Positions 41,637 through 63,136 of a stretch of 64,000 nucleotides of DNA are shown one piece after another (within the stretch, counting starts at the first letter, position 1; every line of letters begins with the position of its first letter). The position numbers and the translations under genes were made by a program. The notes under the pieces were generated by a model. It was not told the DNA's origin and ran no database searches. It saw only the letters and a program-made list of their open reading frames with translations. Location of the stretch: contig JAAYKD010000049.1 of NCBI GenBank assembly GCA_012522585.1, positions 2,808 to 66,807 of the forward strand, given 5' to 3'. Source of the DNA: Bacillota bacterium. Its GTDB lineage: Bacteria > Bacillota > JAAYKD01.

Positions 41637-42386
41637 TTAAAAATTGCTCTCTTTTCTCCTGATCAATTCTTTGACCATAAAGGTTGCCACATCGTCGGCA
41701 TATTTACCGCTGCCAAACCCGGCATCGTAACCCAACTCTTTAGCCAACTCATGGGTAATGCGAGCTCCTCCACAAATGAAGACCATTTTATCTCGCAAAC
41801 CTTCAGCTTCGGCCATTTCGATTAATTCGGTTAAATTATGTATATGTATATCCTTTTGAGTGACCGTTTGAGAAACCAAAATAACATCGGCATTTTCTTG
41901 AACCGCTTTTTGCAAGAGAGTTTCGTTTAAAACCTGACTGCCTAAATTATGAGTGATCAACATGTCGTAGCGTTCCAAACCAAAACGGCCATTGAAGCCC
42001 TTGCGATTCATGATAGCATCGATGCCTACAGTGTGAGCATCTGTGCCTGTCGAAGCTCCGATGACGGTGAGCTTTCGGCCCAATTCTCTTTTGATCAGCT
42101 CGTCGGTTTCTTCAATGGTCAAAGCTTTTTGCTCGTTTTCCAGCACGACAATTGTATCTAAGTCGATGGCAGCTTTGAAAGAACCATAAGCAACATAGAA
42201 TGTAAAGCCTGGGCTCAGACTCTGTTCTTGAGCTATGACAATATCCTCTAAACCCAGCTTCTCCATGATTTGACTGGCAGCAGCTTGAGCTTTCGCTCCT
42301 GCATCCAGAGGCAGAGTAAAACTGATTTGAATTTTACCGTCATTGAGAGTATCTCCATAGGGTTTGATAAAATTTTTATCCTGCAT
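41637..42386 (-). CDS. kamE: Lysine 5,6-aminomutase beta subunit (B12-binding)
   Basis: 249 aa with the B12-binding DxHxxG motif 'TDAHTVG'. Adjacent to kamD. Confidence 0.85.
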
Positions 42387-42405
42387 TTTTCACACCTCTT
42401 TTTCC

Positions 42406-43950
42406 TTAAGACCAGATTTGGCTAAAAGGATTTTCATAGCGCTCATCTTTTTTAGCAACCCCGTCTAATCCTTTGCCTCCCTGGGAAGAACGAGAGATAT
42501 CAGCGAAGACTCCCTTTTCCAAAGCATGAAAGAGTTTGTTTTGATCGATCTCTTCCAGCAATTCCAGGGCCTTTTCTAAAACCAGCTGGGCTCTCTTTTC
42601 AATCTTGCCTCCCGATTTTATTTCCAATTCTTCGGCCAATCCTGCCATGGAAGTAAAGACCATCAGGGCATTTTCTATACTGAGAGCACGATCGGACATG
42701 AAGGGTGTATGAATTGCTTCGGTCAACATGCCTAAGAGGTGGATGTTCTGTCCAGTCAAATATGAAGCGATGTTGAACATGGTGTTTTGGCTCTGACCTT
42801 TAAAAATATTCCCGGTCATGAATTTTGTCGGGGGCATATATTTTAAAGGAGCTTGGGGAAAGAGGCTGCGGGACAGAAGAGCGTGAGCCAATTCCAAGAC
42901 AAATCCACCCTGAACATTTGGGTCGATTTCAAAAGCATGGCCTAAACCCATCTGCTCCGAGGGCAAACCGGCAGCTAAAGCCAATTGTTCATTTAAAATT
43001 TGAGAGGCAATGACGGTATGGGCTTCCTCCACGGCATCGGCAGTGGTCAGATAATTATCTTCGCCGGTGTTGATGATAATACCGGCAACTGCGTTGATTT
43101 GCCTGGAGAAATGCTGGTCGATTAAAGTCCGCTGCATATTGATGTCCCTAAAAAGTATACCATAGAGTGCGTCATTGAGCATCATGTCCAGACGCTCCAA
43201 AGCCCCCATGGCTGCAATTTCAGGCATGCATAAGCCGGAACAATAATTGGTCAGACGGATATAGCGGCCTAACTCCTCTCCCACTTGATCCAGGGCTTGC
43301 CGCATCAGACGAAAATTCTCTTGGGTGGCATAGGTGCCGCCAAAGCCTTCTGTGGTAGCACCATAGGGAACATAGTCTAAAAGACTCTGTCCGGTGGTGC
43401 GAATGACGGCAATGATATCAGCTCCCTGACGGGCCGCTGCCACACTCTGGGTAATATCCTCATAGATATTGCCGGTAGCCACAATACAATAGATCAAAGG
43501 CCTGTCTTTTTTAGGTTCAGCTGCAATTTTCTCTTCCCGTTTTGCTCTTTGTTCAGCGATTTTTTTCAAGCTTTGATTAATATAAGGAGCCAAAACATCA
43601 GAAGCTGTAACTCCCGGGGGAAGAGCAAAGCTGCCCAGCTGAAGCTGGCCTTGATCCACCGCTTCGGCTATTTCCTGAGGGCTCATTTTAGTCTCAAGAT
43701 GAGCTGCTGCAATAAAATAGGCGGCCCCTATGGATAAAAGTCCCCACTCCTTTAAATGTTCAACCAGCACATTGGCATAAGGAGCATAGACTTGATTGAC
43801 CCCGTCGATGCCTAAAAGGCGACAGATGGTCCGTTCAACTGCAACAGTTGTGTGTCCTTGGACAAAAGCCAAAACATCAGAGGCTATACTGGCCCCATGG
43901 GCTTTGGCTTGGGCTACCAGATTTTCATCCAGTTTGATTTGATCGATCAT
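42406..43950 (-). CDS. kamD: Lysine 5,6-aminomutase alpha subunit (PLP-binding TIM barrel)
   Basis: 514 aa. Its start overlaps the kamA stop (ATGA). Confidence 0.85.
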   Translation of the reverse strand: MIDQIKLDENLVAQAKAHGASIASDVLAFVQGHTTVAVERTICRLLGIDGVNQVYAPYANVLVEHLKEWGLLSIGAAYFIAAAHLETKMSPQEIAEAVDQGQLQLGSFALPPGVTASDVLAPYINQSLKKIAEQRAKREEKIAAEPKKDRPLIYCIVATGNIYEDITQSVAAARQGADIIAVIRTTGQSLLDYVPYGATTEGFGGTYATQENFRLMRQALDQVGEELGRYIRLTNYCSGLCMPEIAAMGALERLDMMLNDALYGILFRDINMQRTLIDQHFSRQINAVAGIIINTGEDNYLTTADAVEEAHTVIASQILNEQLALAAGLPSEQMGLGHAFEIDPNVQGGFVLELAHALLSRSLFPQAPLKYMPPTKFMTGNIFKGQSQNTMFNIASYLTGQNIHLLGMLTEAIHTPFMSDRALSIENALMVFTSMAGLAEELEIKSGGKIEKRAQLVLEKALELLEEIDQNKLFHALEKGVFADISRSSQGGKGLDGVAKKDERYENPFSQIWS

Positions 43951-45209
43951 TTATCCAATCTCCGGTTTCTATCATGACGTTTTAAATCCTGAGGTTCTAG
44001 AGATAAGCCTTTGCCTTGGAGCAGAGCCGAAACACCAATTTCCATCTCTTCTCCTTCTTGACGGCAATCCTCACATTCACATTCGAAGACATAATCGCGA
44101 GGCTGGGTGTAAGCGGAGATAACCCCTTCAAAGTTCCTCAAAACGATTCTTTCCGGGCTCTGACTGATCAGATAGTTGGGCATGACCGGTATTTTACCGC
44201 CGCCTCCGGGTGCATCAACGACGAAGGTGGGTACGGCAAAGCCGGAAGTATGGCCTCTTAAGGCCTCGATTATTTCAATACCTTTGCTGACCGGAGTTCT
44301 AAAGTGCTCTAAGCCTTGAGAGAGGTCACATTGGTAAATATAATAGGGTCGTACTCTGATGTCGACTAAATCCTGGACCAGCTGTTTCATCACATGAGTG
44401 CAATCATTGATGCCCGCTAAGAGAACGCTTTGATTTCCCACAGGAATACCAGCGTCTGCTAAAAGTTCGCAGGCTTTGGTGGCTTCCGGAGTAACCTCGG
44501 CCGGATGGTTGAAGTGGGTATTGAGCCAGATAGGATGATACTTTTTCAACATAGCAGTCAACTCAGGAGTGATTCTCTGAGGACAGACCACCGGGGTGCG
44601 GCTGCCTATGCGAATAATTTTGACGTGGGGAATTTCTCGTAAAGCTTTGATAATCTCTTCTAGGCGATTATCCGAGAGGAGTAAGGGGTCTCCACCTGAT
44701 AAGAGGACATCGCGAATTTCCGGATGGGCTGCAATATATTCAATGGCTTTGGCAATTCTGTCCTTGGCCATGGGTTGATCCGACTGACCGGCAAAGCGTC
44801 TGCGGGTGCAATGACGACAGTACATGGAGCATTGATCGGTGACTAAAAGCAAGACCCTGTCGGGATAGCGATGAGTCAGTCCGAAAACAGGGGCATCCTC
44901 ATCTTCACTGAGAGGATCGAGTAAATCTGCAGGAGATTGGATCAATTCCATTAGTGAAGGAACTGCTTGCCTGCGAACCGGGCATTTCGGGTTATTCTCA
45001 TCGATTAAAGAAAGATAGTAAGGGGTGATAGCCATGCGCAGATGGCCTAAACACTGTTTTATTCCTTCTTCCTCATCCTCGGTTAAATTTAAGTACTCTT
45101 TCAACTGTTCCACTGTCTCGATGCGATTGCGCACCTGCCAGTGCCAATCCTGCCAATCTTCATCTTTAACTGAAGCAAAATATTTATCCTTCAAAGACAA
45201 AGCAAACAC
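43947..45209 (-). CDS. kamA: L-lysine 2,3-aminomutase (radical SAM)
   Basis: 420 aa with the radical-SAM 'CSMYCRHCTRRR' motif and a C-terminal Zn-Cys cluster. Confidence 0.9.
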   Translation of the reverse strand: MFALSLKDKYFASVKDEDWQDWHWQVRNRIETVEQLKEYLNLTEDEEEGIKQCLGHLRMAITPYYLSLIDENNPKCPVRRQAVPSLMELIQSPADLLDPLSEDEDAPVFGLTHRYPDRVLLLVTDQCSMYCRHCTRRRFAGQSDQPMAKDRIAKAIEYIAAHPEIRDVLLSGGDPLLLSDNRLEEIIKALREIPHVKIIRIGSRTPVVCPQRITPELTAMLKKYHPIWLNTHFNHPAEVTPEATKACELLADAGIPVGNQSVLLAGINDCTHVMKQLVQDLVDIRVRPYYIYQCDLSQGLEHFRTPVSKGIEIIEALRGHTSGFAVPTFVVDAPGGGGKIPVMPNYLISQSPERIVLRNFEGVISAYTQPRDYVFECECEDCRQEGEEMEIGVSALLQGKGLSLEPQDLKRHDRNRRLDK

Positions 45210-45221
45210 TCCTTTCGATAG

Positions 45222-46256
45222 CTAGACATAGCGTTGGTTAAAATATTCTTTGAGTTCTTCATTTTCTCTCAATTCCCACAGGGTGATTTCCGCATGACCT
45301 TTGGTATAACCGTTGCCGATGATCATGGTCACGTCCTTACCCACACCTTCAGCCCCCAAAGCTGCTTTGGTAAAGCTGGTCGCCATGGAAAAGAAATAGA
45401 CTATACCCTCCTGGCGCACAGGTAAAATACAGGACATCTCAGCATCAGGAGCATTGACACAGCTGATTGCGATATCCACTTCCTGGTTGTCATTGGCTTC
45501 CAGTGTTTTTTCCAAAACTTCCAGAGCATTGGTCGCATCTGCTACGATGATCTGATGGGCTAAGCCTAAAGCTCTGATCTTCTCCACATCTTTTTCGCTG
45601 CGATCGAGAGCGATTACATTGCCTGTAGGCCCGACCCTTTTCTTAGCTTCATAGAGACAGAGCAAGCCTGATTTGCCTCCGGCTCCCAAGATCAAGACGG
45701 AATCACCGGGCTTGACCAATTTAGCCGTTTGAGCCGGAGCTCCTGCCACATCTAGAGCAGCCAAGCTCAGGTTTTCGCTCAAATCTGTAGGCAATTTAGC
45801 ATAGATTCCACTGGCAAATAAAACTGCTTGTCCTTTAATATCCACCCGGTCAATCTCCGGATGAATGGCTATGATTTCTTCAATGTAGAGAGGAGTCAAG
45901 GATAAGGAGACCAAGGAAGCTATTTTATCCCCGATTTTTAAATCCTTGAGTTTTAAAGCGGAACCAAAGGCCGCCACAGTGCCGATGAACATACCGCCTG
46001 AACCTGTGACGGGATTTTGCATTTTACCTCTGTCAGCGACAATCTTCAGAATCTGTTCTTTGATCTTTTCCGGATCCCCTTGGGCGGCCTGCTTCAATTG
46101 AGCAAAGGAAGCAGAGTCAATATTCAATGAATGGACATCCACTAAAATCTCATTATCATAGAGTTTAGAAAAATCATTGTCCAATTTTTGCGCCCCTTGG
46201 GGCAGTTTGCCTTGGGGCTCTAGTACCCTGTGGCTGCCGTATTTGTTGCCTTGCAT
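45222..46256 (-). CDS. kdd: L-erythro-3,5-diaminohexanoate dehydrogenase
   Basis: 344 aa NAD(P)-dependent dehydrogenase in the canonical position between kce and kamA. Confidence 0.8.
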   Translation of the reverse strand: MQGNKYGSHRVLEPQGKLPQGAQKLDNDFSKLYDNEILVDVHSLNIDSASFAQLKQAAQGDPEKIKEQILKIVADRGKMQNPVTGSGGMFIGTVAAFGSALKLKDLKIGDKIASLVSLSLTPLYIEEIIAIHPEIDRVDIKGQAVLFASGIYAKLPTDLSENLSLAALDVAGAPAQTAKLVKPGDSVLILGAGGKSGLLCLYEAKKRVGPTGNVIALDRSEKDVEKIRALGLAHQIIVADATNALEVLEKTLEANDNQEVDIAISCVNAPDAEMSCILPVRQEGIVYFFSMATSFTKAALGAEGVGKDVTMIIGNGYTKGHAEITLWELRENEELKEYFNQRYV

Positions 46257-46277
46257 AAGAATCTTCCTTTCAAGGAT

Positions 46278-47105
46278 TTATTTAGGATTTAAGCCTAAAA
46301 TCTCTCGAGCTTGTTGGGGAGTGGCGATTTCTCGGCCTAATTCCTTGGCTATCCGCACCACTTTTTCCACCAATTCACCGTTGCTTTGAGCTTTTAAGCC
46401 TCGGGCTAAATAGACATTGTCTTCAAAGCCTACTCGAACATGGCCACCTAAGATCATCGCCATGGTGGCAATGGGAAAAGCCGCTCGGCCTATGCCGGTA
46501 GCTGTATAAGTGGAATCGGCAGGTAAGCTCTCAACCATGAAAAGAAGATCGCGGGGCTCAGCACTGATGCCGCCATTGACCCCTAAAACTAAATTGAAAT
46601 GCATGGGACCGGGGATCTGGCCTCTGGCATTCAGCCTTTTGGCTAAATCAATCATGCCCTTGTCAAAAACCTCTACTTCCGGCTTGACATTGCGCTCCAT
46701 CATCTGACGGGCAAACTCAATAATCATATTCTCAGTATTGACGAAAATTTCATCTCCGCCGAAATTTAGGGTCCCACAATCTAAAGTAGCCATCTCAGGA
46801 TTTAAGCGCAAAGGCTGCAGACGCTCTTCAGCACTCATGCCGGTGGCTCCACCAGTGGAAGGTTGAACGATCAACTCAGGAGGACAAAGCCGGTAAATTT
46901 CTTCCATACAAGCTTTAAATCGATCATAGCTCTGAGTCGGGGTGCCATCGTCTTCTCTGACATGGAGATGAATGATGGAAGCTCCTGCCCGATAAGCGCT
47001 TAAAGCCTCTCGGCCAATTTCTTCAACGGTATAAGGGACAGCCGGGTTATGTTCTTTGGTCACTTCCGCCCCACAAATGGACGCTGTGATGATTAAAGGT
47101 TCCAT
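46278..47105 (-). CDS. kce: 3-keto-5-aminohexanoate cleavage enzyme (BKACE/DUF849)
   Basis: 275 aa with N-terminus 'PLIITASICGAEVTKEHNPAVPYTVEEI'. Confidence 0.85.
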   Translation of the reverse strand: MEPLIITASICGAEVTKEHNPAVPYTVEEIGREALSAYRAGASIIHLHVREDDGTPTQSYDRFKACMEEIYRLCPPELIVQPSTGGATGMSAEERLQPLRLNPEMATLDCGTLNFGGDEIFVNTENMIIEFARQMMERNVKPEVEVFDKGMIDLAKRLNARGQIPGPMHFNLVLGVNGGISAEPRDLLFMVESLPADSTYTATGIGRAAFPIATMAMILGGHVRVGFEDNVYLARGLKAQSNGELVEKVVRIAKELGREIATPQQAREILGLNPK

Positions 47106-47121
47106 TCTTTCACCTCAATTA

Positions 47122-47505
47122 TTATTTGTTTCTTTGCCTGTCTTTGGGCACTATACAGGTACCCACAGCTTTACAGACTACTATCGGTTCAGCTAAAACT
47201 TCACAGGCAGAATCTCTAATATCAGGCCTGGGTTGAATCACTTTGCGAGCTTCAAATTCCATCTTTCTGGATGTGTTTCCGGCAGATGTGATTCTTCCGA
47301 CGATTTCAAGAAAATCTCCGGCATAGACTGGAGCTAAAAAATCTATCGACTCGTAAGCTCTAAACAAGCCTTCGTCTCCATCGTGACGAATCAGCAATTC
47401 TGTGGCTACATCTCCAAAAAGCTGCAGCAGCTTGGCTCCGTCCACCATCTGGCCTCCGTAATGAGCATCGGCCGCACTCATCCGCAATCTCAGCATAACT
47501 TCCAT
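47122..47505 (-). CDS. kal: 3-aminobutyryl-CoA ammonia-lyase (hot-dog fold)
   Basis: About 128 aa. AAAGGGGA sits 7 nt before the ATG at 47505; the ORF-track start at 47523 is a TTG inside the RBS. First gene after the riboswitch. Confidence 0.8.
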
Positions 47506-47520
47506 GAAAATTTCCCCTTT

Positions 47521-47574
47521 CAAATAAAAAAATAAGAGCCCTTTAAAAATCAGTTAAACTGTTTTTAAAGCGCT
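47521..47574 (-). terminator. Intrinsic terminator (expression platform of the lysine riboswitch)
   Basis: On the minus strand: GAGCGCTTTAAAAA-cagtttaactga-TTTTTAAAGGGCTC followed by TTATTTTTTTATTT. The 5' arm overlaps the riboswitch's 3' P1 strand. Confidence 0.65.
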
Positions 47575-47727
47575 CCATGATTTACCTTCATCATGACAGA
47601 AAGACCGCACTGAGCAATCTTCCCAAAGCTAAAGAAGACACGTTTCTTTGCTTTTCGGCAGCTGCACATTCCATCGATTCATCAAGAACGTTCTCCCTCC
47701 CCGATGTACCTTGACAACTGCGCCTCT
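47569..47727 (-). promoter_or_regulatory. Lysine riboswitch (L-box) aptamer in the leader of the kal-kce-kdd-kamADE… operon
   Basis: On the minus strand the element has 5' AGAGGCGC, …GTGCAGCTGCCGAAAAG…, …CTGTCATGATGAAGG… and a 3' GGAGCGCT. These are the L-box hallmark blocks, in the canonical order and at the expected length of about 160 nt. Confidence 0.7.
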
Positions 47728-47750
47728 AATCAGATATTAAGTTCAAGAAT

Positions 47751-47779
47751 AATATAACAATCTTTCATGCTAATGTCAA
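47751..47779 (-). promoter_or_regulatory. Near-consensus sigma-A promoter driving the riboswitch and lysine operon
   Basis: On the minus strand: TTGACA, a 17-nt spacer, then TGT-TATATT (extended -10). The -35 box overlaps the stop codon of the upstream gene. Confidence 0.6.
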
Positions 47780-49242
47780 TGTTTTTTTCGTTTTTTAGCC
47801 ATTTCTTTGGCAAAATTCTCCATTATCTCCTGATCCAAGCCTAAAAGACCAGCAACCAAGCGGGCTTCTTTGGGTACTGTTTTTTCTGAAGCGGAAATTT
47901 CCCAACTATAGTTCATCTTTTCCTGCAAGAAAAGGGTGGGATCTTTGCCTGAATTCAATTGCTTCCTCAAAGCCTTTAAATCCAATTGACTCAAACCTAT
48001 GATCTGCCAATGAGCCTCAGCCTCTTGAGCAATTTCATCATAATGGCTGGCAATAATAGTCAGGCCCTTTTGTTTTTTTCTTTTCTTTAAAATCGCTTTG
48101 AGCAGGGCTGCCCCTTCTGTCGGATTGGTGCTGCGAGCAAATTCATCCAGGATTAAAAAAGCTTTGCTCTTTTGATTTTGGGCAATGAAGTTTTGCAGAG
48201 CTATGATCTCAGCAGCAAAACTGCTCAAGCCCTTCTGTAAGGATTGTTTGATCTCATCGATCATGGTTAAAGAATCGAAAAGAGTCAGACAAGCTCTTTC
48301 AGCAAAAACGAAAAATCCTGTCTGAAAGAGATATTGGTTGAGCATCAGGCTCTTTAAAGCTATGCTTTTACCGCTCATATTGGCTCCGGTCAAAACGCTT
48401 GTGCCCAAGGGCAGTTTTAAATCCAGACTCTGATAGGCCTTGTGCTGGGATTGCAAATTCCACTGGAGCAGAGGATGCCTGAGCTTCATATAATCGAGCT
48501 TGTCTGTCTGGCTTATTTGAGGGCTGACCATTTTAAATTGAATGGCCATATGAGCCTTGGCCTGCAAAAAATCCAGACGCCCCAAGAGCTGACAGAGCTC
48601 TTCAATCTCCTCAGTCCAAACTCTCAGCTGCAGTGAGAGCTCTTGGTAAATACTCTCCTCTTCCTTCGTCTCTTCTTGGTTTTTCCTTTTCAGCTCTGCT
48701 TTAATCTGGTCATTCTCTTCATCTTGAAAGAGAGATTTTAACAATTGAGCCTTGTCTTGACGAATCAGAGCTAATTCTCGGGAAAAATTCCCATCTAAAA
48801 AAAAGGAAGGCAAGCGATTGCTTTGAGGATCGAGGATTTTTAAGACCTGCTCAATTAAAATAACCCTTACTTCAGAGCCTTGCAGCCGGCTCAATTCGAT
48901 TAAAATTTCCAAATCCTTCTCCAGAGCTATGAAGAATCGTTTTATTTTCAAAAAGCCTTCAGCATAGAGTGAATGACCGTTCTTCAGACTTTCAAGCTCC
49001 GATTTTAAATCAGGCAAGCTTTGCAAAAAAGAATTGAGAGGGGCTTTTAAATCTGGGCGCTGAACAAAATAATTGTAAAAGGATTGAACTTTCTCCAGCT
49101 CCTGAACCAGCTCTGCTTCCTCAGCGGAGGAATAAAACTTGAGCCGGAAAGCCCGCTGACCATAGACGGAGCCTAAAGGCAATTGAGCCAAAACCTCATC
49201 CAACTCCTCCGACCACTGCCAATTTATACCGGGATATTGCAA
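47776..49242 (-). CDS. MutS2-like protein lacking the Smr domain (MutS core/clamp region plus domain V ABC ATPase)
   Basis: 'LGRLDFLQAKAHMAIQF…KLRHPLLQ' matches MutS domain IV/connector. Walker A 'GANMSGKS' and Walker B 'LILDEFARST' are present. There are no mismatch-binding domains. Confidence 0.65.
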   Translation of the reverse strand: MQYPGINWQWSEELDEVLAQLPLGSVYGQRAFRLKFYSSAEEAELVQELEKVQSFYNYFVQRPDLKAPLNSFLQSLPDLKSELESLKNGHSLYAEGFLKIKRFFIALEKDLEILIELSRLQGSEVRVILIEQVLKILDPQSNRLPSFFLDGNFSRELALIRQDKAQLLKSLFQDEENDQIKAELKRKNQEETKEEESIYQELSLQLRVWTEEIEELCQLLGRLDFLQAKAHMAIQFKMVSPQISQTDKLDYMKLRHPLLQWNLQSQHKAYQSLDLKLPLGTSVLTGANMSGKSIALKSLMLNQYLFQTGFFVFAERACLTLFDSLTMIDEIKQSLQKGLSSFAAEIIALQNFIAQNQKSKAFLILDEFARSTNPTEGAALLKAILKKRKKQKGLTIIASHYDEIAQEAEAHWQIIGLSQLDLKALRKQLNSGKDPTLFLQEKMNYSWEISASEKTVPKEARLVAGLLGLDQEIMENFAKEMAKKRKKH

Positions 49243-50291
49243 GCCAAACCCTCCTTAATATCAAAAACCGCACATTTTGCCTGAAAGCACAATTCTTTAA
49301 AAAATTGCCTTTCCGGCGAAATCAAACCATATTGGTCCTGTTGGTTGACGAAAATACCGCCAACAGTAAAATTGTTGAAAGCGTAAACTCTCAGTCCTCT
49401 CTCCTGCCAAAAGGTCCACTGCTTTGAGTCCAACATGATCTTGCTTCCGTTGGGGATGATCAGAGAAAATCCTTGATCGAACTTTGTATTTTGATTGAGC
49501 TCAGTCAAAAAAGCATTGGTAATGGCTCCCTGAAAATAAAAGCCATCGCAGAGCTGCTCATGGAAAAGATTCCAAGGCAGATCATTTTGATAGATTTGCT
49601 CCAAGCTAAATTCTCTGATTATTTCTTGGCCTTTGACAAAGGCAGCATGAGCCGCTGAATCAAGATCGATTCTTAAAGGCAGGTTGGCCAACAAGTCATA
49701 GAGAAAAAGAGTTTCAGCCAGGGCATCCTCTTCCCTTTGAAAACAAAAAGGAGCGGTGGCCAGGAGCAGGGTCTGCTCTTTTTGCCAATCCATGACTCGC
49801 CGATTGATACTGCCATCGATTATCACCCTCTCGGCTCCATGCGCTTGCAGAGCCTGGATAACCCTTTCGGTCTGACGACGAGAAGATGGCCCCGACAACT
49901 GAATATAGCCGGCACTGCGGGCCCGAATCAAGAGATAGGAGCCTAGGGCACCCCCAGGCCCCAGAATATCAACAAGCTCCTTGGTTACTTCCGATTGAGA
50001 CCAAAGAGCTGTTTGACTGATAAATAGAGTTCCTGCCGTGACAAGGATTCGAGGTTTGGCTTTTGTGCCGGCCCGATCCAGGCTTTCTCCATCCAAACCG
50101 ATGGACAACAAACCTAAGACCAGATCTTTTTTTTCTTCCCTAGCCGCTTGCAAAAAAGCATTGAGCACGGTTGTCTTGCCGGCATTTTTACAAAAACCGA
50201 TTAAGGAGAGAACTTGATTTTTATCCAGTATTTCCATGAGCTGGCTATTTTTCAAACCTATGGGCACAGGATCATCCTCCTCGAGAATCAA
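49224..50291 (-). CDS. P-loop NTPase of unknown family
   Basis: 'GFCKNAGKTT' Walker A near the N-terminus. 355 aa. Its stop and the MutS-like start overlap by 19 nt. Confidence 0.45.
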   Translation of the reverse strand: MILEEDDPVPIGLKNSQLMEILDKNQVLSLIGFCKNAGKTTVLNAFLQAAREEKKDLVLGLLSIGLDGESLDRAGTKAKPRILVTAGTLFISQTALWSQSEVTKELVDILGPGGALGSYLLIRARSAGYIQLSGPSSRRQTERVIQALQAHGAERVIIDGSINRRVMDWQKEQTLLLATAPFCFQREEDALAETLFLYDLLANLPLRIDLDSAAHAAFVKGQEIIREFSLEQIYQNDLPWNLFHEQLCDGFYFQGAITNAFLTELNQNTKFDQGFSLIIPNGSKIMLDSKQWTFWQERGLRVYAFNNFTVGGIFVNQQDQYGLISPERQFFKELCFQAKCAVFDIKEGLACNIPV

Positions 50292-50306
50292 AAATAATCA
50301 CTTAGC

Positions 50307-50660
50307 TTAGAGTAAAATAAAGGTAACGCCATGATTGTGTCTCTCTAAATCCCTGTCTTGGCGCAATTCAGGTGCTGCCTGCAAAATTTCCCTGGCTGTC
50401 TGATCAAAAATGGAAAAATCTTCTCCACTAACAAAAGCTTTAATTTTATCCTGCTTCTGCAAGGATTTTAAATAACTGCGCAGACCAATCCGCAAATTGC
50501 CCCCTTTACCACTGGAGCCATAGCCGTGAATGATTTTTAAAACCGAAAGCTTTTGCCTTCGGCAGTTTTTCATTTCTTGATCCAACAATTGTCTGCCTAG
50601 CTGAACCGTAGGGAAATAGCTTTCTAAATTAAAAACTGTGCTGTTCGTCTTTTTCTTCAT
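50307..50660 (-). CDS. Stand-alone Smr-domain protein
   Basis: 'LKIIHGYGSSGKGGNLRIGL' is the Smr-domain core. Its ATG at 50660 forms an ATGA overlap with the lepB stop; the ORF-track start at 50690 lies inside lepB. Confidence 0.6.
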   Translation of the reverse strand: MKKKTNSTVFNLESYFPTVQLGRQLLDQEMKNCRRQKLSVLKIIHGYGSSGKGGNLRIGLRSYLKSLQKQDKIKAFVSGEDFSIFDQTAREILQAAPELRQDRDLERHNHGVTFILL

Positions 50661-51181
50661 TTTAAAGCCCTCAGCTTGTTCAAAGGCCACATGATGGCGA
50701 CAGCCCGACCAATGACTTTTTTCTCACTGACAAAGGGAGTCGTCACCCAAAATCTGGCATCTTCAGAATTATTGCGGTTGTCCCCCATGAAAAAGAGCAT
50801 GCCCTCAGGCACTTCAAACTTCTCCTGATAGCTAAAGGTCTGCCCCATTGTATAGCCTTCTTCAAGCAATTGCCCATTCAAAAAGACTTGGCCTTCTTTG
50901 AACTCGATGGTGTCTCCACCTTTGGCAATCAGCCTTTTTATATAGGGGAAAGTACCGGGCTTGGAGTCCGGGCAGGGAAAGACCAGAATGTCACCGTATT
51001 CAGGTTTGCGGAAAAACCGGGTGAATTTTTCTACTACCACCCTTTCTCCCGGCATGATGGTAGGAGTCATGGAAGCTGAGGGAACCAAGGGAAAGACCAC
51101 TACAAAAAAATATATGAAGGCCACAATGGCGGCTGAAATCAAAAACTCAGATAGAAATTCCTTTATCCATTTTAAATCCAA
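50657..51181 (-). CDS. lepB: Signal peptidase I
   Basis: 'SASMTPTIMPGERVVVEKF' with the catalytic Ser, and 'GDNRNNSEDARFW' box E. 174 aa. Confidence 0.85.
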   Translation of the reverse strand: MDLKWIKEFLSEFLISAAIVAFIYFFVVVFPLVPSASMTPTIMPGERVVVEKFTRFFRKPEYGDILVFPCPDSKPGTFPYIKRLIAKGGDTIEFKEGQVFLNGQLLEEGYTMGQTFSYQEKFEVPEGMLFFMGDNRNNSEDARFWVTTPFVSEKKVIGRAVAIMWPLNKLRALK

Positions 51182-51301
51182 TTATAAAACCCTCTTTCAT
51201 CATTAGCCACAAGATCAGATAAATTATAACACAATTGAAAAACCTTGACCAGATAAGCCTGAATTTAACAGAATTGTTTGACAACAAGAGGGAAAGGGCT
51301 G

Positions 51302-53600: not shown

Positions 53601-54722
53601 CTATTCTTCAATCAATTCGACGTTGGCCCTGGGCACAGTTACGATTTCACCATTGCGCAAACGCACGTTCATGATTCTTACTCGAGCACCAGTTTCGATA
53701 ACAAACAGCTCAGGTGGTAAGTCCACAACTTCTGCCAATTGACCAAAATAGGGTTCACGGATGCAACGAACCAAAGTTCCAGCGTCCATGCTGCCGTCCA
53801 AAGCTGCTTCAATTTCATCTACATCGATGGACTCATCGGGTACAATGATTTCCGGACGCATAACACCGGCACGAATTTGAGTAGCACCGTTGATCGAAGC
53901 ATGCTTTCCGTCTAAAGCAGTGAGGAGTTCAAAGGTCTTGTGAGCCATATTGATTTCACCAAAACCTTCGGTTGTGATTAAAGTAAAGGGTACATCTTCG
54001 TGACCTGTGATGGCAACACCAATATCATAACCTAAGAATTTAACCAAGTCGCTATCGATGATTCCACCGACAACAATACCGCGTGCTCCAACTTGAGCTG
54101 CTTTTTGAATAGCTTCATAGGTTACTAAGCTGCCGCCGACGAGGATACAACCTTCGTGAGAATCATTGATATGATGAGCATCTAAAACTGTGTTTTCGTC
54201 TTCTACAACAACTTTTAAGATGCCTTCACGTTCGCCGCCGACCCCGAAGATACCCTGAATAAAGGCACCCTTGGTTTCAACTGTAACGCCTTCCCGTTCG
54301 ATAATATCGACAACTGTGCCTTCAATATAGGCATGCATTGTAATAGGCATGGCGGGTTCACGAATGATTACCTGACCGGTAACTTCAGAGATATGCTCAA
54401 CTGTTCCTGAAACAGGTGATTTTACTTCAGTTTTAAAGAGGCCAAAGAATGATTTAGCCAATGCCAGTGTTTCATCTTTTTCGACTGTGTCACCAGCTTT
54501 TTTCTGCATGAAGGGTTCAATATCTTCAGCTTCGACGCCTAAGATATTAGCAACGTTAATAGATTGAGGGTTACCAGGGATGTACGCCTTAGCAACGGGA
54601 GTATCGGGGTGCACTCTGGCACCTTTTTGAACCAAAACTTCACCGGGGATAGGAAGACGACGAACCTTGGATATTCTTGAGGCAGAAGTTACCTTCAGAC
54701 CCGGAGTATATGCACTAGCCAT
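53601..54722 (-). CDS. Hypothetical protein, partner of the GlmL-like ATPase
   Basis: 373 aa. Its start lies 30 nt downstream of the preceding gene's stop. No family recognised. Confidence 0.4.
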   Translation of the reverse strand: MASAYTPGLKVTSASRISKVRRLPIPGEVLVQKGARVHPDTPVAKAYIPGNPQSINVANILGVEAEDIEPFMQKKAGDTVEKDETLALAKSFFGLFKTEVKSPVSGTVEHISEVTGQVIIREPAMPITMHAYIEGTVVDIIEREGVTVETKGAFIQGIFGVGGEREGILKVVVEDENTVLDAHHINDSHEGCILVGGSLVTYEAIQKAAQVGARGIVVGGIIDSDLVKFLGYDIGVAITGHEDVPFTLITTEGFGEINMAHKTFELLTALDGKHASINGATQIRAGVMRPEIIVPDESIDVDEIEAALDGSMDAGTLVRCIREPYFGQLAEVVDLPPELFVIETGARVRIMNVRLRNGEIVTVPRANVELIEE

Positions 54723-54751
54723 TGAGTAACGCTCCTTTCATTTTCAAGTCT

Positions 54752-56626
54752 TTATTGCGCTGTGTTCATGTAGCGTTCCAATACATCCATCGGATAGATG
54801 TCCAACGCCTTGAACCATTCAACGAGCTTGGCAATCCGTGTTTGTTTATCAGTAGGTAAGTTGAAGGGACGGCGACCGCGAGCATCTATGATGATACCGC
54901 CGGCTGCTCCGCCTCTGATTTTTTTATGAACGGCACGTCCTTTGCCATTACCCATATCAAACATATTGGTTGGAATAACTTCTACTTCAGCATAATCATC
55001 ATGTCCCAGCGGGATGGTATCCATAGCACCGTAGGGAACTTCTCTTGTTACAGTTTCGCCATTGGGCATTTTAGCTTTGACAGTTACACATTTGTCGCCG
55101 TCTTTTTGAGCATTGCCAATGGGAACAATAGCAGTAGCCAAGAAAATCAGGCAGTCACGGGCAAAAACTTCTGCAGCTGCTGTAGGGTGAACGTCAGAAA
55201 GTACGCCCAATTGAGGTGTCATAAAGATAGAGTCAACTGTCAACTCAGTAAAGCCTTCCAATTGGAAAGCATCCAACATCATCAAAGCAGTTTGTTGACG
55301 ACGAGGAGCATGAGATAAAACTCCGCCGGAGCCAACGATCATGCCCAGTTTATCCAATTCAATGATGGAGTCGCTGGAAGAGCTTTGATCGAATGCTTCT
55401 GCAATATCACGAACTTTTTGGACACCTTTGAGGCCTGTGGCCAAGGATTTGTGGTGAATGAAAGACAAGCGCAGGGCTTCTCTGGCAACGCTTTGTTCGA
55501 TGACCAATTCTTCCAATGTCTGGGGAACTGTAGTCGGACGAATCATCTTATTACGGATACGGTTGCGCAAATCACCTTCATCAATATCAAAGGGGACCCA
55601 TTGCATGATATTATCTACGCCTGCTTCAAGCAAGACGTTACAGATGGAATAGCTCATACCTAAGTTAGCTGAAACTGTTCTGTTGAAATATTCATGATCA
55701 TCACCGAAAACGGAGAAGATGTCAGTAGTAGCTCCGCCAATATCAACACCGATAATATGAATGTTGTATTGTTCAGCAGTTGTTTGGATGATACGACCAA
55801 CTGCACCGGGTGTGGGCATGATGGGCACTTCAGTCCATTGCATCAACTTGTTGTAACCGGGAGCTTGAGCCATAACGTGTTCCATAAAGAGGTTATGAAT
55901 CTCTTCACGAGCCGGTCCTAGAACTTCAACTTCCAGAACAGGACGAAGGTTGTCGACAATTCTCAAGTCAACTTTCTTTTCTAAGATGTCACTGATATAT
56001 TTGCGAGCATCTTTGTTACCTGCGAAGATAATAGGCAGATTATAACCAATCCCCAAACGAGGTCTCGGTTCGGCTGCAGAAATCAATTCTCCAATTTCAA
56101 CAACGTGGGTGATTGTTCCGCCATCGATACCACCGGATAAGAGAATCATATCCGGACGCAATTGGCGAATACGCTCGATTTTTTCGTAAGGTTTACGACC
56201 GTCATCAATTGAAATGGCGTCCATAACGATAGCACCTGCACCCAAAGCTGCACGTTGAGCGGATTCGGCGGTCATTGTTTTAACGACGCCTGCTACCATC
56301 ATCTGTAAGCCTCCGCCGGCTGATGAGGTGGACAAATAAATATCTACACCTGTGCCGTCGGGTTGACGCGGGGTGATGACACCGTCAGGTCCTAGGAAAG
56401 TGTTACCAACTAATTCTTCAAGTTCGTGTACCGCATTGCGGACACCGGCAGTAACGTCTTCAAAGGGGGCTTCGACGGTTGTCGGAGATTCTCCACGGTT
56501 AATCAAACGATAGACTCCATCAATCTTTTCAATCAAGATTGCTTTGGTCGTTGTTGATCCACAGTCCGTGGCAATAATGGAATTAATTTCGCGAGTTATA
56601 GGGGCTCGCTTTACTTCATGAGCCAT
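54752..56626 (-). CDS. GlmL/MutL-family (hydantoinase-A-like, ASKHA) ATPase
   Basis: Two ASKHA phosphate motifs: N-terminal 'IATDCGSTTTKAIL' and internal 'IIGVDIGGATTDIFSV'. 624 aa. Confidence 0.55.
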   Translation of the reverse strand: MAHEVKRAPITREINSIIATDCGSTTTKAILIEKIDGVYRLINRGESPTTVEAPFEDVTAGVRNAVHELEELVGNTFLGPDGVITPRQPDGTGVDIYLSTSSAGGGLQMMVAGVVKTMTAESAQRAALGAGAIVMDAISIDDGRKPYEKIERIRQLRPDMILLSGGIDGGTITHVVEIGELISAAEPRPRLGIGYNLPIIFAGNKDARKYISDILEKKVDLRIVDNLRPVLEVEVLGPAREEIHNLFMEHVMAQAPGYNKLMQWTEVPIMPTPGAVGRIIQTTAEQYNIHIIGVDIGGATTDIFSVFGDDHEYFNRTVSANLGMSYSICNVLLEAGVDNIMQWVPFDIDEGDLRNRIRNKMIRPTTVPQTLEELVIEQSVAREALRLSFIHHKSLATGLKGVQKVRDIAEAFDQSSSSDSIIELDKLGMIVGSGGVLSHAPRRQQTALMMLDAFQLEGFTELTVDSIFMTPQLGVLSDVHPTAAAEVFARDCLIFLATAIVPIGNAQKDGDKCVTVKAKMPNGETVTREVPYGAMDTIPLGHDDYAEVEVIPTNMFDMGNGKGRAVHKKIRGGAAGGIIIDARGRRPFNLPTDKQTRIAKLVEWFKALDIYPMDVLERYMNTAQ

Positions 56627-59404: not shown

Positions 59405-60391
59405 TCACCTTTCTCCTTGATCATAAGGTTGCCCGGCAGCCTGAGGAGCTGAAGATGATTGGCTGGAAAAAATCAGAACAATCAGGGTCGCTATATAGGG
59501 CACCATTTTGTAAACCTCGCTGGAAATCGGCAGTTTGGCTAAGAACAAAACTGAAGATGAGGAGGCTGAAATGGTTTTCATAAAACCGAAGAAAATAGCA
59601 GCTGCAAAGACTTTGAGAGGATTCCATTGGCCGAAGATTAAAACAGCCAAGGCCAAAAAGCCATAGCCTCCCACAGTGGCGTTGAAATTGGTTGAAGTGG
59701 GTATGACCAAGACTAATCCGCCAATCCCGCCTAGGATTCCTGAAATCAAAACACCGGCGTAGCGCATCTTATAGACATTGATTCCGACGGAATCGGCCGC
59801 TTGCGGATGTTCACCACAAGCCCTTAAACGCAGACCAAAGCGAGTTTTATAAAGTAAAACCCAGGAGACTATCAATAACAACAAACACAAATAGGAAGTA
59901 ATATAGGTGTTTTTAAAAAACATCGGGCCAAGCAAAGGCAGATCGCCTAAAAGAGGCACTGAAGCTATGCGAAATTGATTTTTAAAAGGTATTTGTTGAA
60001 CTGTTCGGCCGATCACTTTGGTTGTAGCCAGTCGACCTACGAAGATGGCAAAAGGGGTTGATGCCAGGTTTAAGGCGGTGCCACTGATCACCTGGTCGGC
60101 CTTTAAGTGAATCGCGGCATAAGCATGAAAGAGAGAATAGACTAAGCCCGCCAGGCCGGCTACCAAAACAGCCGCCAGCAAAAGAAGATGGCCGGCAAAC
60201 TCAGTGTAATTTTGCATATAAAAGATGAAGAGAACCCCGGCCAGAGCCCCCATGACCATGATGCCTTCTAGAGCTATATTGACGACACCACTGCGTTCGG
60301 AAAACAAACCGCCTAAAGCTACGATTAAAAGAGGCATGGAAAAATACATCATCTGCTGAAAAAGGAAAAAGAGTAAATCTAGACCAGTCAC
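59405..60391 (-). CDS. ABC transporter permease (nucleoside/BMP-type, NupQ-like)
   Basis: 328 aa, about 8 TM, branched-chain-type permease. ATGA overlap with the upstream permease gene. Confidence 0.8.
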   Translation of the reverse strand: MTGLDLLFFLFQQMMYFSMPLLIVALGGLFSERSGVVNIALEGIMVMGALAGVLFIFYMQNYTEFAGHLLLLAAVLVAGLAGLVYSLFHAYAAIHLKADQVISGTALNLASTPFAIFVGRLATTKVIGRTVQQIPFKNQFRIASVPLLGDLPLLGPMFFKNTYITSYLCLLLLIVSWVLLYKTRFGLRLRACGEHPQAADSVGINVYKMRYAGVLISGILGGIGGLVLVIPTSTNFNATVGGYGFLALAVLIFGQWNPLKVFAAAIFFGFMKTISASSSSVLFLAKLPISSEVYKMVPYIATLIVLIFSSQSSSAPQAAGQPYDQGER

Positions 60392-61542
60392 TTTTCTATC
60401 CCCTCCTCTATTTTGTTCTCAGCACTTTCTGCTAAGTCGGCTTCCACAAACCCTTCGCTGACTATTTTTTCCCGCCCGGAAAAGAGATTGAGCAAACGAG
60501 TGCGGAAGAGCAGAGCAAAAGCACTGAAATAGATGATAGCTGCTATGATAATATTAATGATTTCCTGGTCATAATTGAGCAATTGCAGATTGAAGCCTCC
60601 GACCTTGATATAGGCAATAAAAATACCTGCGGCCAGAATACCAAAGGGCTGACTCATGCCTAAGAGAGCTACGGAGATACCGTCAAAACCTTCGTTGGCG
60701 ATCAGGTCAATCACTTTAATGTATTTACCAGAACCGGACAGATAAAGAAGACCGCCACCTAAGCCGGACAAAGCTCCGGAAATCATCATGGAATAGACAA
60801 TATTCCTTTTGGCATTGATACCGGCATAGAGACCTGCATCCAAATTAAAGCCACAGGCTTTTAATTCGTAACCGAAGGTTGTCTTTTCTAGGATAACATA
60901 GACTAAGACGACGAAAATCAGGACAATCAGGATTCCCCCGTTCATGCTCGAATAGGGAAAAATTTTATCCAAGCCCCATTTAGGCACATTGGCCGAGGCC
61001 ATGACGGGCAAACTTTCATTTTTATACTTATTGTAAACAGTGGCCTTGACCAGCATATTGACGGCACTCATGCTAATATAATTCATCATGATCGAGGTTA
61101 TGACTTCGTTAACATTGCGCACAGCTTTTAAAAAGCCGGGTAAAAAGCCCCAAATGGCCCCAGCCAGCAGGGAAGCCAAGAGAGCCACCATCCAATGAAT
61201 GGAGGCGGGCAGGCCTTTTAAATTTACCCCCACATAGACAGCCGCAAAAGCTCCGATGCTAAACTGACCTGAGGCACCGATATTAAAGAGCCCCGTCTTA
61301 AAAGCAAAGCCTACAGCCAAACCTGTCATGATAATTGGTGTGGCATAATAAAGAACTTGCCCCATTCCGGCCAAGCCCTTGTTTAAACCACCCTTGAAGA
61401 TTATCAGAATACCAGCCAGAGCTTGCTGGTAATTTACTGTCAGCAAGATCAAGAAGCCTAAAATGAAACCGGCCATGATAGCCATGATAGAAGGTGCAAC
61501 AGCTAACAGAAAGTTCTTAGATTTATCTCGCAAATTCTGCAC
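60388..61542 (-). CDS. ABC transporter permease (NupP-like)
   Basis: 384 aa polytopic protein. Overlaps the ATPase gene by 20 nt. Confidence 0.8.
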   Translation of the reverse strand: MQNLRDKSKNFLLAVAPSIMAIMAGFILGFLILLTVNYQQALAGILIIFKGGLNKGLAGMGQVLYYATPIIMTGLAVGFAFKTGLFNIGASGQFSIGAFAAVYVGVNLKGLPASIHWMVALLASLLAGAIWGFLPGFLKAVRNVNEVITSIMMNYISMSAVNMLVKATVYNKYKNESLPVMASANVPKWGLDKIFPYSSMNGGILIVLIFVVLVYVILEKTTFGYELKACGFNLDAGLYAGINAKRNIVYSMMISGALSGLGGGLLYLSGSGKYIKVIDLIANEGFDGISVALLGMSQPFGILAAGIFIAYIKVGGFNLQLLNYDQEIINIIIAAIIYFSAFALLFRTRLLNLFSGREKIVSEGFVEADLAESAENKIEEGIEK

Positions 61543-63055
61543 CCACTTTCAAACCGGCCATATAAAGGCCCAATTCTTCCACCGTAACCTCTTTGGGATC
61601 CAGGTCAGCCACCAAAGCTCCTTCGAAAATTACCAGAATACGGTCGCTCACATCCAAAACTTCGTCCAATTCCAAAGACACCAAGAGCACGCCCTTATCA
61701 GCACTGCGCTGTCTGATCAGCTGCTCGTGAATGAATTCTATGGCTCCCACATCCAAACCTCGAGTGGGTTGAACAGCAATTAAAAGTTCTGGGTCTAAAT
61801 CCAATTCCCTGGCCAAGATTGCTTTTTGCTGATTACCTCCGGACATGCTGCGAGCCTTGGTCCGCCCTCCGAGGGCAGATCGTATGTCGTATTTACCGAT
61901 TAACTCTCGGGCATAATTTTCAATCACGGAAAATTTTAAAAAGCCACGATTGGAAAAGGGCTCCCTGTTATAACTATGTAAGACTAGATTCTCATCGAGG
62001 CGGTAATCCAAGACCAGCCCGTGTTTATGTCTGTCTTCAGGGATATGAGCAAAGCCCAGCTCCGTCTTCCTCTTGGTAGGCAAATTGGTCACATCCTGGC
62101 CTTTGTAATAGATGCGCCCCCCATCTATGGAGAGCAAGCCGGTCAAAGCGTAAACCAAAGGGCTTTGACCGTTCCCGTCAATACCGGCAATGCAGACAAT
62201 TTCTCCTTTAGCGACTGAAAAGGAAATATCGTTGACTAAATTTTTACCTGTGGTCGGGCTTTTCACCACCAAGTTTTCCACCCTTAAAATTTGCTCACCT
62301 AATTCTTGCTCGGGTTTGGCAACTTGGAAATTGACAGTTCGCCCTACCATGAGGCGGGACATCTCAGTTTTATCTGTTGTAGGCACGTCGACAGTGGCTA
62401 CTTTAACACCTTTTCGTAAGATGGTACAGCGGTCTGCCACTTCTTTGATTTCATTTAATTTGTGAGTGATAAAGAGAATGGTTTTACCTTCAGCCGTCAA
62501 CTCTCTCATGATCTTCATCAATTCTCGAATTTCTTGAGGCGTCAAGACGGCAGTCGGTTCATCAAAAATCAGTATTCTATTATCCCGATAGAGCATCTTC
62601 AAGATTTCTACTCTTTGCTGCATGCCAACTGTAATCTCCGAAATTAAGGCATCTGGGTCGATTCTCAATTGATATTTTTGACTCAACTCCAAAACCTTTT
62701 CCTTGGCTTCCTCCATTTTTAGAAATCCTCGGCTGGTAGTTTCCACTCCCAGAACGATATTTTCCAAAACGGTGAAATTGTGGACCAGCTTGAAATGCTG
62801 ATGCACCATACCAATACCCAAAGCGTTGGCATCGTTAGGATTGCGAATTTCCACCGGCTCATTGTCAATTAGAATCTGACCTGAATCAGGCTTATAGAGA
62901 CCGAATAAAATGCTGACTAAAGTCGATTTACCGGCACCATTCTCGCCTAAAAGAGCGTGGATCTCCCCTGGCTTCAATTGCAGGGTGACATCATCATTGG
63001 CTACTATACCGGGAAAACTCTTTGTTATCTGGCGCATCTCTATGATATAACTCAC
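61523..63055 (-). CDS. ABC transporter ATP-binding protein with duplicated NBDs (NupO-like)
   Basis: Two Walker A motifs (GENGAGKST and GIDGNGQS). AAGAGGTG sits 5 nt before the GTG at 63055; the ORF-track start at 63103 has no RBS. Confidence 0.8.
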   Translation of the reverse strand: MSYIIEMRQITKSFPGIVANDDVTLQLKPGEIHALLGENGAGKSTLVSILFGLYKPDSGQILIDNEPVEIRNPNDANALGIGMVHQHFKLVHNFTVLENIVLGVETTSRGFLKMEEAKEKVLELSQKYQLRIDPDALISEITVGMQQRVEILKMLYRDNRILIFDEPTAVLTPQEIRELMKIMRELTAEGKTILFITHKLNEIKEVADRCTILRKGVKVATVDVPTTDKTEMSRLMVGRTVNFQVAKPEQELGEQILRVENLVVKSPTTGKNLVNDISFSVAKGEIVCIAGIDGNGQSPLVYALTGLLSIDGGRIYYKGQDVTNLPTKRKTELGFAHIPEDRHKHGLVLDYRLDENLVLHSYNREPFSNRGFLKFSVIENYARELIGKYDIRSALGGRTKARSMSGGNQQKAILARELDLDPELLIAVQPTRGLDVGAIEFIHEQLIRQRSADKGVLLVSLELDEVLDVSDRILVIFEGALVADLDPKEVTVEELGLYMAGLKVGAEFAR

Positions 63056-63089
63056 GAATTCACCTCTTTTAACCCATATATTCTGATTA

Positions 63090-63136
63090 AAAGTATAAAG
63101 CACTAAGAGCAGTTTGGCAACTGCTCTTAGTGCTTG
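63090..63136 (-). terminator. Intra-operon hairpin (partial terminator) between the substrate-binding-protein gene and the ATPase gene
   Basis: aagcactaagagcag-tttggcaa-ctgctcttagtgctt, a perfect 15-bp stem followed by a weak T-tract. Confidence 0.5.

Follow-up and report, generated by a model that had tools for sequence, protein, structure and literature searches.

Across a stretch of 64,000 nucleotides from a Bacillota bacterium (assembly GCA_012522585.1, contig JAAYKD010000049.1, positions 2,808 to 66,807; the whole stretch is called the window here, and positions count from its first letter), we examined a unit of four tandem open reading frames (ORFs) on the minus strand, at 47776-51181, which the ORF list and the sequence itself show to encode a signal peptidase I (LepB), a stand-alone Smr-like protein, a P-loop protein and a MutS-like ATPase. 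The unit lies beside a set of lysine-fermentation genes, and the question it raises is whether these genes together represent a MutS2 protein encoded in pieces, possibly a rescue system for collided ribosomes, or whether some of them serve the adenosylcobalamin- and pyridoxal phosphate-dependent lysine 5,6-aminomutase, KamDE. Both possibilities had been put forward in an initial annotation made from the sequence alone. Judging from family membership and gene context, we consider it likely that the last two genes of the unit, kamB and kamC, encode a two-subunit accessory factor (E2-type) of KamDE. This agrees with the reactivase hypothesis of the initial annotation, with the NCBIfam names and with the kamDE neighbourhood, and for that reason it is not new: the two genes are already catalogued in curated databases as a reactivase pair, of which the window holds an ordinary though divergent copy.

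The MutS-like ATPase and the P-loop protein

The proteins were compared with the family models of NCBIfam release 20, using its curated equivalog cut-offs, and with Pfam domains. With NF052383, "lysine 5,6-aminomutase reactivase ATPase KamC", the MutS-like protein, KamC (47776..49242, minus strand, 488 aa), gives 398.8 bits and so passes the cut-off of 300, its residues 13-479 spanning model positions 2-506 of 508. Against the mutS2 model (TIGR01069) it reaches 166.9 bits, aligns only to model positions 231-459 of 790, and fails the cut-off of 400. Its homology to MutS2 (RqcU, or endonuclease MutS2) lies in the MutS domain V ATPase, of the ATP-binding cassette (ABC) type, and in the core/clamp helices that precede it: MutS domain V is the sole Pfam domain found (MutS_V, 75.3 bits), and the alignments with MutS2 chains of the PDB (E-value about 4e-20; residues 78-427 in the case of 7vuf) extend over these helices as well as over the ATPase domain. 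The Walker A (GANMSGKS) and Walker B (LILDEF) motifs are both intact.

In contrast to MutS2, which has about 785 aa, KamC has no C-terminal KOW/Smr region, and it is found among the genes of a B12 enzyme pathway and not among translation or recombination genes. Neither an Smr domain nor domain I, the mismatch-binding domain, was detected in KamC, which at 488 aa is too short for either of them, so that the earlier description of a MutS-like protein devoid of both is borne out. The same two domains (the former as PF01713) are absent from all of the top 120 KamC homologues, and since these are 390-542 aa long, the short length is the norm of the family and not the product of a frameshift. A frameshifted ordinary mutS2, considered beforehand as an alternative, is thus ruled out, the ORF being intact, preceded by its own ribosome-binding site and of a length usual in the family, for which 430-540 aa is typical. 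One KamC homologue (P0228, 532 aa, 27% identity) is annotated as coming from a metagenome-assembled genome (MAG) of Candidatus Lokiarchaeota, which suggests that lysine-aminomutase accessory genes are also present in Asgard archaea.

The P-loop protein, KamB (49224..50267, minus strand, 347 aa), is encoded within a longest ORF that extends to 50291 (355 aa). It matches NF052386, "lysine 5,6-aminomutase reactivase subunit KamB", from end to end, the aligned residues (28-345 in the numbering of the 355-aa ORF, about 20-337 in that of the 347-aa protein) spanning positions 1-326 of 326, with 187.6 bits (E-value 2.7e-55) for a cut-off of 210. By this operational threshold, the window KamB is a divergent member of the family. 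We built an alignment of 23 KamB sequences, including one that is named KamB in UniRef (P0036), which has three invariant motifs, G..KNAGKT (the P-loop), S.G.DGE and DG...R, and all of the invariant columns are present in the window protein. Both proteins of the pair thus fall in families with curated names (NF052383 and NF052386), and the earlier statement that the architecture and its P-loop protein had not been characterised is out of date.

No Pfam domain was found in KamB, and a profile of the alignment gave only marginal P-loop matches among solved structures, to Arf-like GTPases (E-value about 1). By fold search, the N-terminal half of KamB is a SIMIBI-class NTPase, closest to dethiobiotin synthetase, FlhF and the signal recognition particle GTPases; this class also holds the G3E metallochaperones, represented by UreG, and the cobalamin chaperone MeaB is a G3E member. 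The family is large, with about 2000 clusters at E-value ≤ 1e-10 in a HMMER search of 1.84 billion representative proteins, and the best 150 of the clusters listed have a single domain and a length of about 290-375 aa.

Pairing of kamB and kamC and their association with lysine fermentation

The KamB alignment was scanned over one genome per GTDB species, which gave more than 589 stretches with a relative; the best 80 loci were analysed with 10-kb flanks, and all of their ORFs were searched with the window proteins. kamC follows kamB directly in 76 of these 80 loci, and in the remaining four the contig ends either at or just past kamB (three loci) or about 90 nt downstream of it (L074). Lysine-fermentation genes are found alongside kamBC in about 66 of the 80, so that the neighbourhood analysis with kamDE that had been proposed with the initial annotation strongly favours the association. 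Two gene orders are found repeatedly. One is kamB-kamC-kal-kce-kdd-kamA-kamD-kamE, that of the window; the other is kal-kdd-kamA-kamB-kamC-kamD-kamE, whose kamA-B-C-D-E order would account for the gene names. The suggestion that MutS-like ORFs occur near both kamDE and oraSE therefore stands for the former but not for the latter, as no link to oraSE was found in the 80 loci examined.

In about ten loci (L003, L006, L011, L016, L020, L025, L034, L064, L065 and L067) no lysine-fermentation gene lies within the flanks. Ornithine aminomutase was considered as the neighbour of kamBC in such loci and was ruled out, the ORFs of 777-784 aa proving to encode a Lon protease and a xanthine-dehydrogenase-type subunit.

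Public databases already contain much of this picture. RefSeq and UniRef give KamB and KamC reactivase names to homologues in Haloplasma contractile and Staphylospora marina, and the public entries identical to the window pair carry the labels "hypothetical protein" and "dsDNA-specific endonuclease/ATPase MutS2". Published maps of the lysine-fermentation clusters of Fusobacterium nucleatum and of digester contigs also show genes marked "HP" and "mutS" inside the cluster (PMC3149608).

In the window, the presumed client pathway of KamBC is encoded by kal-kce-kdd-kamA-kamD-kamE (41637..47505, minus strand). The first gene, kal (47122-47505), was identified with NF052388 (194.5 bits, cut-off 160), and kce (46278-47105), kdd (45222-46256), kamA (43947-45209), kamD (42406-43950) and kamE (41637-42386), all on the minus strand, were named from their translations and have homologues in the nearest relative of the locus (L001); relatives of these window proteins also border kamBC across the 80 loci.

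The initial annotation had placed the four-gene unit directly upstream of the lysine operon, which is correct as regards gene order, but the interval from kamC to kal holds a candidate promoter and a lysine riboswitch. The former, which would serve the lysine-fermentation operon (47751..47779, minus strand; TTGACA-17-TATATT, 11/12 consensus, with an upstream TG) overlaps the kamC stop codon. It is followed by a lysine riboswitch aptamer (47560..47734, minus strand; Rfam RF00168), which lies in the leader of kal-kce-kdd-kamA-kamD-kamE and scores 64.8 bits (gathering score 30, E-value 1.2e-14) over model positions 1-182 of 182, and by a terminator hairpin with a U-run (47525..47576, minus strand; -20.1 kcal/mol, z -6.1), which is also present in the fold of the full leader. 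The hairpin takes its 5' arm from the 3' end of the aptamer, so that lysine binding should prevent formation of the terminator, and the riboswitch would therefore be an ON switch, as fits a catabolic operon. Among seven comparison loci, a lysine riboswitch precedes kal in five (L022, L038, L010, L013 and L002), and in four of these it comes after kamC, as it does in the window; kamBC is thus commonly found just outside the lysine-controlled unit. No riboswitch hit was obtained before kal in L001 or L042, and L001 also has no room for one.

Proposed function of KamBC

Lysine 5,6-aminomutase has been described as a KamDE core (E1) with E2, an auxiliary protein of about 80 kDa that activates it in an ATP-dependent manner; recombinant KamDE is active alone, but its suicide inactivation leaves cob(III)alamin bound, and for the classical E2 a transfer of label from ATP to E1, an adenosylcobalamin-synthetase activity and a role of ATP as allosteric activator were reported (PMC3958899). 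KamB and KamC together amount to about 95 kDa, versus about 80 kDa for E2. The window pair resembles the KamB/KamC reactivase, the classical "E2" of beta-lysine mutase, in that KamC passes the cut-off of its family, KamB matches its family end to end, the family motifs are kept, and the genes are adjacent, overlapping and beside kal-kce-kdd-kamA-kamD-kamE, as in most of the 80 loci. It differs from it in sharing a unit with lepB and the Smr-like gene, an arrangement found in one other genome only, and in lying upstream of the lysine riboswitch and not inside the operon.

It is from this homology, family membership, motif integrity, pairing and synteny that we infer a reactivase biochemistry and the roles of the two subunits. 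KamDE inactivates itself during turnover, with the oxidised cobalamin remaining tightly bound; the KamBC complex would then bind the inactivated enzyme, and ATP binding and hydrolysis by KamBC would open the cobalamin-binding subunit, allowing the damaged cofactor to leave and fresh adenosylcobalamin to enter KamDE. This putative mechanism is drawn by analogy with the diol/glycerol dehydratase reactivases, EutA, GlmL and the MeaB-type G-protein chaperones. The folds are not alike: those of DdrA, EutA and GlmL are of the ASKHA/Hsp70 type, that of KamC is a MutS-type ABC ATPase, and at the level of sequence neither KamB nor KamC was found to be related to DdrAB/GdrAB, EutA, GlmL (MutL) or MeaB/CblA.

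Several observations weigh against the assignment of KamBC as the accessory factor of KamDE. KamB falls 22 bits short of the curated NF052386 cut-off, and a primary experimental paper on KamB/KamC was not found in a literature search, the name of the function resting on curated annotation and synteny. The adenosylcobalamin-synthetase activity reported for the classical E2 is not obviously explained by the fold of either protein. The roughly ten of the 80 loci that have no lysine-fermentation gene within the flanks have kamBC among unrelated genes, and in the five of them examined the neighbours are clpX-lon-ysxC-ytvI (L006), a xanthine-dehydrogenase-like gene, an aldolase, a PhzF-family isomerase, and amidohydrolase-like and beta-lactamase-like genes. 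Finally, the identity between the window (47776-50267) and its nearest relative (L001, 9848-12474) is only 39-40% for KamB and KamC, as against 67-82% for Kal, Kce, Kdd, KamA, KamD and KamE and 76% for LepB, indicating that the accessory proteins evolve much faster than their presumed client.

The explanation that competes best with reactivation is that KamBC acts as a chaperone for cofactor delivery or loading, which would gate the entry of adenosylcobalamin into apo-KamDE, maybe together with an adenosyltransferase and with ATP-dependent allosteric activation, and would not eject damaged cofactor. The label transfer, adenosylcobalamin-synthetase activity and ATP allostery of the classical E2 (PMC3958899) point in this direction, as does the SIMIBI fold of KamB, a class shared with G3E metallochaperones such as UreG; moreover, as kamBC lies outside the riboswitch-controlled unit in many genomes, the pair could be made before the enzyme. 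However, the curated names read reactivase, and recombinant KamDE is active without E2 yet inactivates itself, which suggests that the missing function is repair and not loading. We therefore regard a dedicated loading role as rather unlikely, bearing in mind that loading and reactivation are not mutually exclusive.

The Smr-like gene, lepB and the organization of the locus

The four tandem minus-strand genes, with their ATGA and 19-nt overlaps, are arranged as first described, and the many homologues available for each of the four ORFs indicate that they are genuine genes and not chance ORFs. A candidate promoter of the unit (51223..51251, minus strand; TGGTCA-17-TATAAT with an upstream TG, scoring 10/12 in a consensus scan, a pattern match only) precedes lepB (50657..51181, minus strand, 174 aa), the first gene, which starts with TTG after an AGAGGG ribosome-binding site and whose product is a signal peptidase I (Peptidase_S26, 135.9 bits; TIGR02227, 135.6 bits for a cut-off of 47, which it meets). 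The Smr-like gene (50307..50660, minus strand, 117 aa) opens at a GTG further upstream in the program-made ORF list; we prefer the ATG at 50660, which has its own GAGGG site and overlaps the TGA stop codon of lepB as ATGA. It is separated from kamB by a gap of 39 nt (15 nt if a TTG start is used), without overlap. The likely kamB start is the GTG at 50267, which follows a GAGGAGG site and gives 347 aa, as in an identical database protein that comes from a "Firmicutes bacterium" MAG. kamC starts at a TTG (49242) with an AAGGAGG site and overlaps the end of kamB by 19 nt. By this overlap kamB is translationally coupled to kamC. The arrangement is best explained by transcription of kamBC together with lepB and the Smr-like gene from the upstream candidate promoter, outside the riboswitch-controlled catabolic operon.

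The Smr-like protein gives a marginal match to Pfam Smr (PF01713; 28.1 bits, which reaches the gathering score), and structure comparison indicates a genuine Smr fold; a phmmer search of PDB sequences returned chance-level matches only (ribosomal protein uS9 and a MutS2 Smr domain, E-values 0.3-1). It belongs to a well-conserved family of stand-alone proteins of about 115 aa with at least 573 members, Verrucomicrobiales included (homologues P0043-P0161), whose invariant motifs are N-x-E, LK.IHGYGSSG.GG, GE.F.IF and LR.D.DL...N.GVT. The canonical first Smr motif is D-x-H, and the invariant N-x-E of this family stands in the position where that motif would usually be. The protein differs from E. 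coli SmrA (YdaL), for which it scores 19.2 on a model with a cut-off of 180 and so fails, and from SmrB (YfcN), in having the conserved N-x-E and not D-x-H; compared with both it is much shorter, with about 10 residues before the domain and no N-terminal extension.

Elsewhere, members of the Smr-like family are found next to genes for DUF308 proteins, an amidotransferase and a thioesterase, or 2-oxoacid dehydrogenases, with no kam, MutS-like or lepB neighbour. In the closest homologues (56-57% identity; L085 3746-5369, L086 1434-3045 and L088 699-2310), the gene has an 8-nt overlap with the end of a gene for a 420-aa ornithine/diaminopimelate/arginine (Orn/DAP/Arg) decarboxylase, which may be another context related to lysine or diamines, or else may reflect coincidence or a single lineage. 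When a hidden Markov model (HMM) of the family was used to search all ORFs of 50 aa or more, the Smr-like gene was found beside kamBC in only two of the 80 loci, the window and its nearest relative, a Eubacteriales MAG (L001), and lepB likewise lies upstream of kamBC in these two alone. The presence of lepB and the Smr-like gene with kamBC thus represents one lineage-specific arrangement and not a conserved "split MutS2". The Smr-like protein is probably a passenger, standing outside the reactivase, and lineage-specific gene order best explains both lepB and the Smr-like gene as neighbours of kamBC and not as components.

The gene order could nevertheless have been kept because the Smr-like protein, and possibly LepB, was recruited in this lineage as a partner of KamBC, either as a regulator or as an extra subunit. 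The lepB-smr-kamB-kamC order and the lepB/smr overlap are preserved in L001 despite the low identity of its KamB and KamC, and one long operon is possible in that locus, where kamC is only about 160 nt away from kal and the riboswitch search gave no hit; the overlap of the closest Smr-like homologues with a decarboxylase gene may also be read in this sense. Two genomes, however, amount to one evolutionary event, the Smr-like gene occurs in no other KamB locus of the 80, other family members adjoin 2-oxoacid dehydrogenase, amidotransferase or DUF308 genes, and lepB is a housekeeping gene, so that we find such a recruitment very unlikely. A related, more far-reaching idea is that in the window lineage and L001 the N-x-E Smr protein is now a working partner of KamC, a MutS2-like ATPase and an Smr protein having been re-paired in trans around the repair of a B12 enzyme. 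More broadly, the family of about 115 aa might have a non-nuclease role in lysine/diamine metabolism, because its gene adjoins kamBC here and overlaps a diaminopimelate/ornithine-type decarboxylase gene in the nearest homologues. We would give this proposal equally little credence.

Least probable of all, and in our view highly improbable, is that the stand-alone Smr protein, the P-loop protein and a MutS2 paralogue lacking Smr act together on collided ribosomes or DNA, as a split system of the MutS2/SmrB type. It is true that the closest solved relatives of KamC are MutS2 proteins, including the ribosome-bound MutS2 of B. subtilis, and that the genes lie close together on the same strand. The Smr-like gene, though, accompanies kamBC in two of the 80 loci even when the family HMM is included, and it belongs to an independent family of at least 573 members found in unrelated contexts, without a MutS-like or KamB neighbour. 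KamC itself misses the mutS2 equivalog cut-off (166.9 versus 400) and has no Smr domain among its top 120 homologues, and kamB-kamC tracks lysine-fermentation genes and not translation or repair genes. The split-MutS2 framing of the initial annotation is contradicted by these results, and no support was found for its collided-ribosome rescue hypothesis. Anti-phage defence was also considered and discarded, given that PADLOC gave no meaningful signal.

Two further regions of the window deserve mention. About 3.5 kb upstream of lepB, a gene at 54752-56626 (minus strand) encodes a 624-aa divergent protein of the GlmL family, an accessory-protein family of B12-dependent glutamate mutase; it matches the Pfam "MutL protein" domain (PF13941) with 411.8 bits, and three NCBIfam models (GlmL, the Or-4 protein of ornithine degradation and the GlmL family model) give scores below their cut-offs. 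The ORF that comes after it (53601-54722, minus strand) encodes 373 aa with no family match, and no mutase gene adjoins this pair (53601-56626). Further away, three ABC-transporter genes (59405-63103, minus strand) best match the permease and ATPase models that NCBIfam names "putative B6 ABC transporter", with all three falling short of the cut-offs.

Our reading of KamB and KamC as the accessory factor of KamDE corrects a likely mis-annotation of the identical public proteins, and it implies that the adjacent Smr gene is not to be taken as the missing half of a MutS2. As the analysis also documents, the lysine riboswitch often comes right after kamBC and leaves the pair outside the operon under its control. 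A MutS-type ATPase that repairs a B12 enzyme would be of biochemical interest, a point to which the window contributes nothing unique. What the locus exemplifies is the conserved accessory pair that an ATPase derived from MutS2 and a P-loop protein of the SIMIBI class form in the pathway of lysine 5,6-aminomutase.

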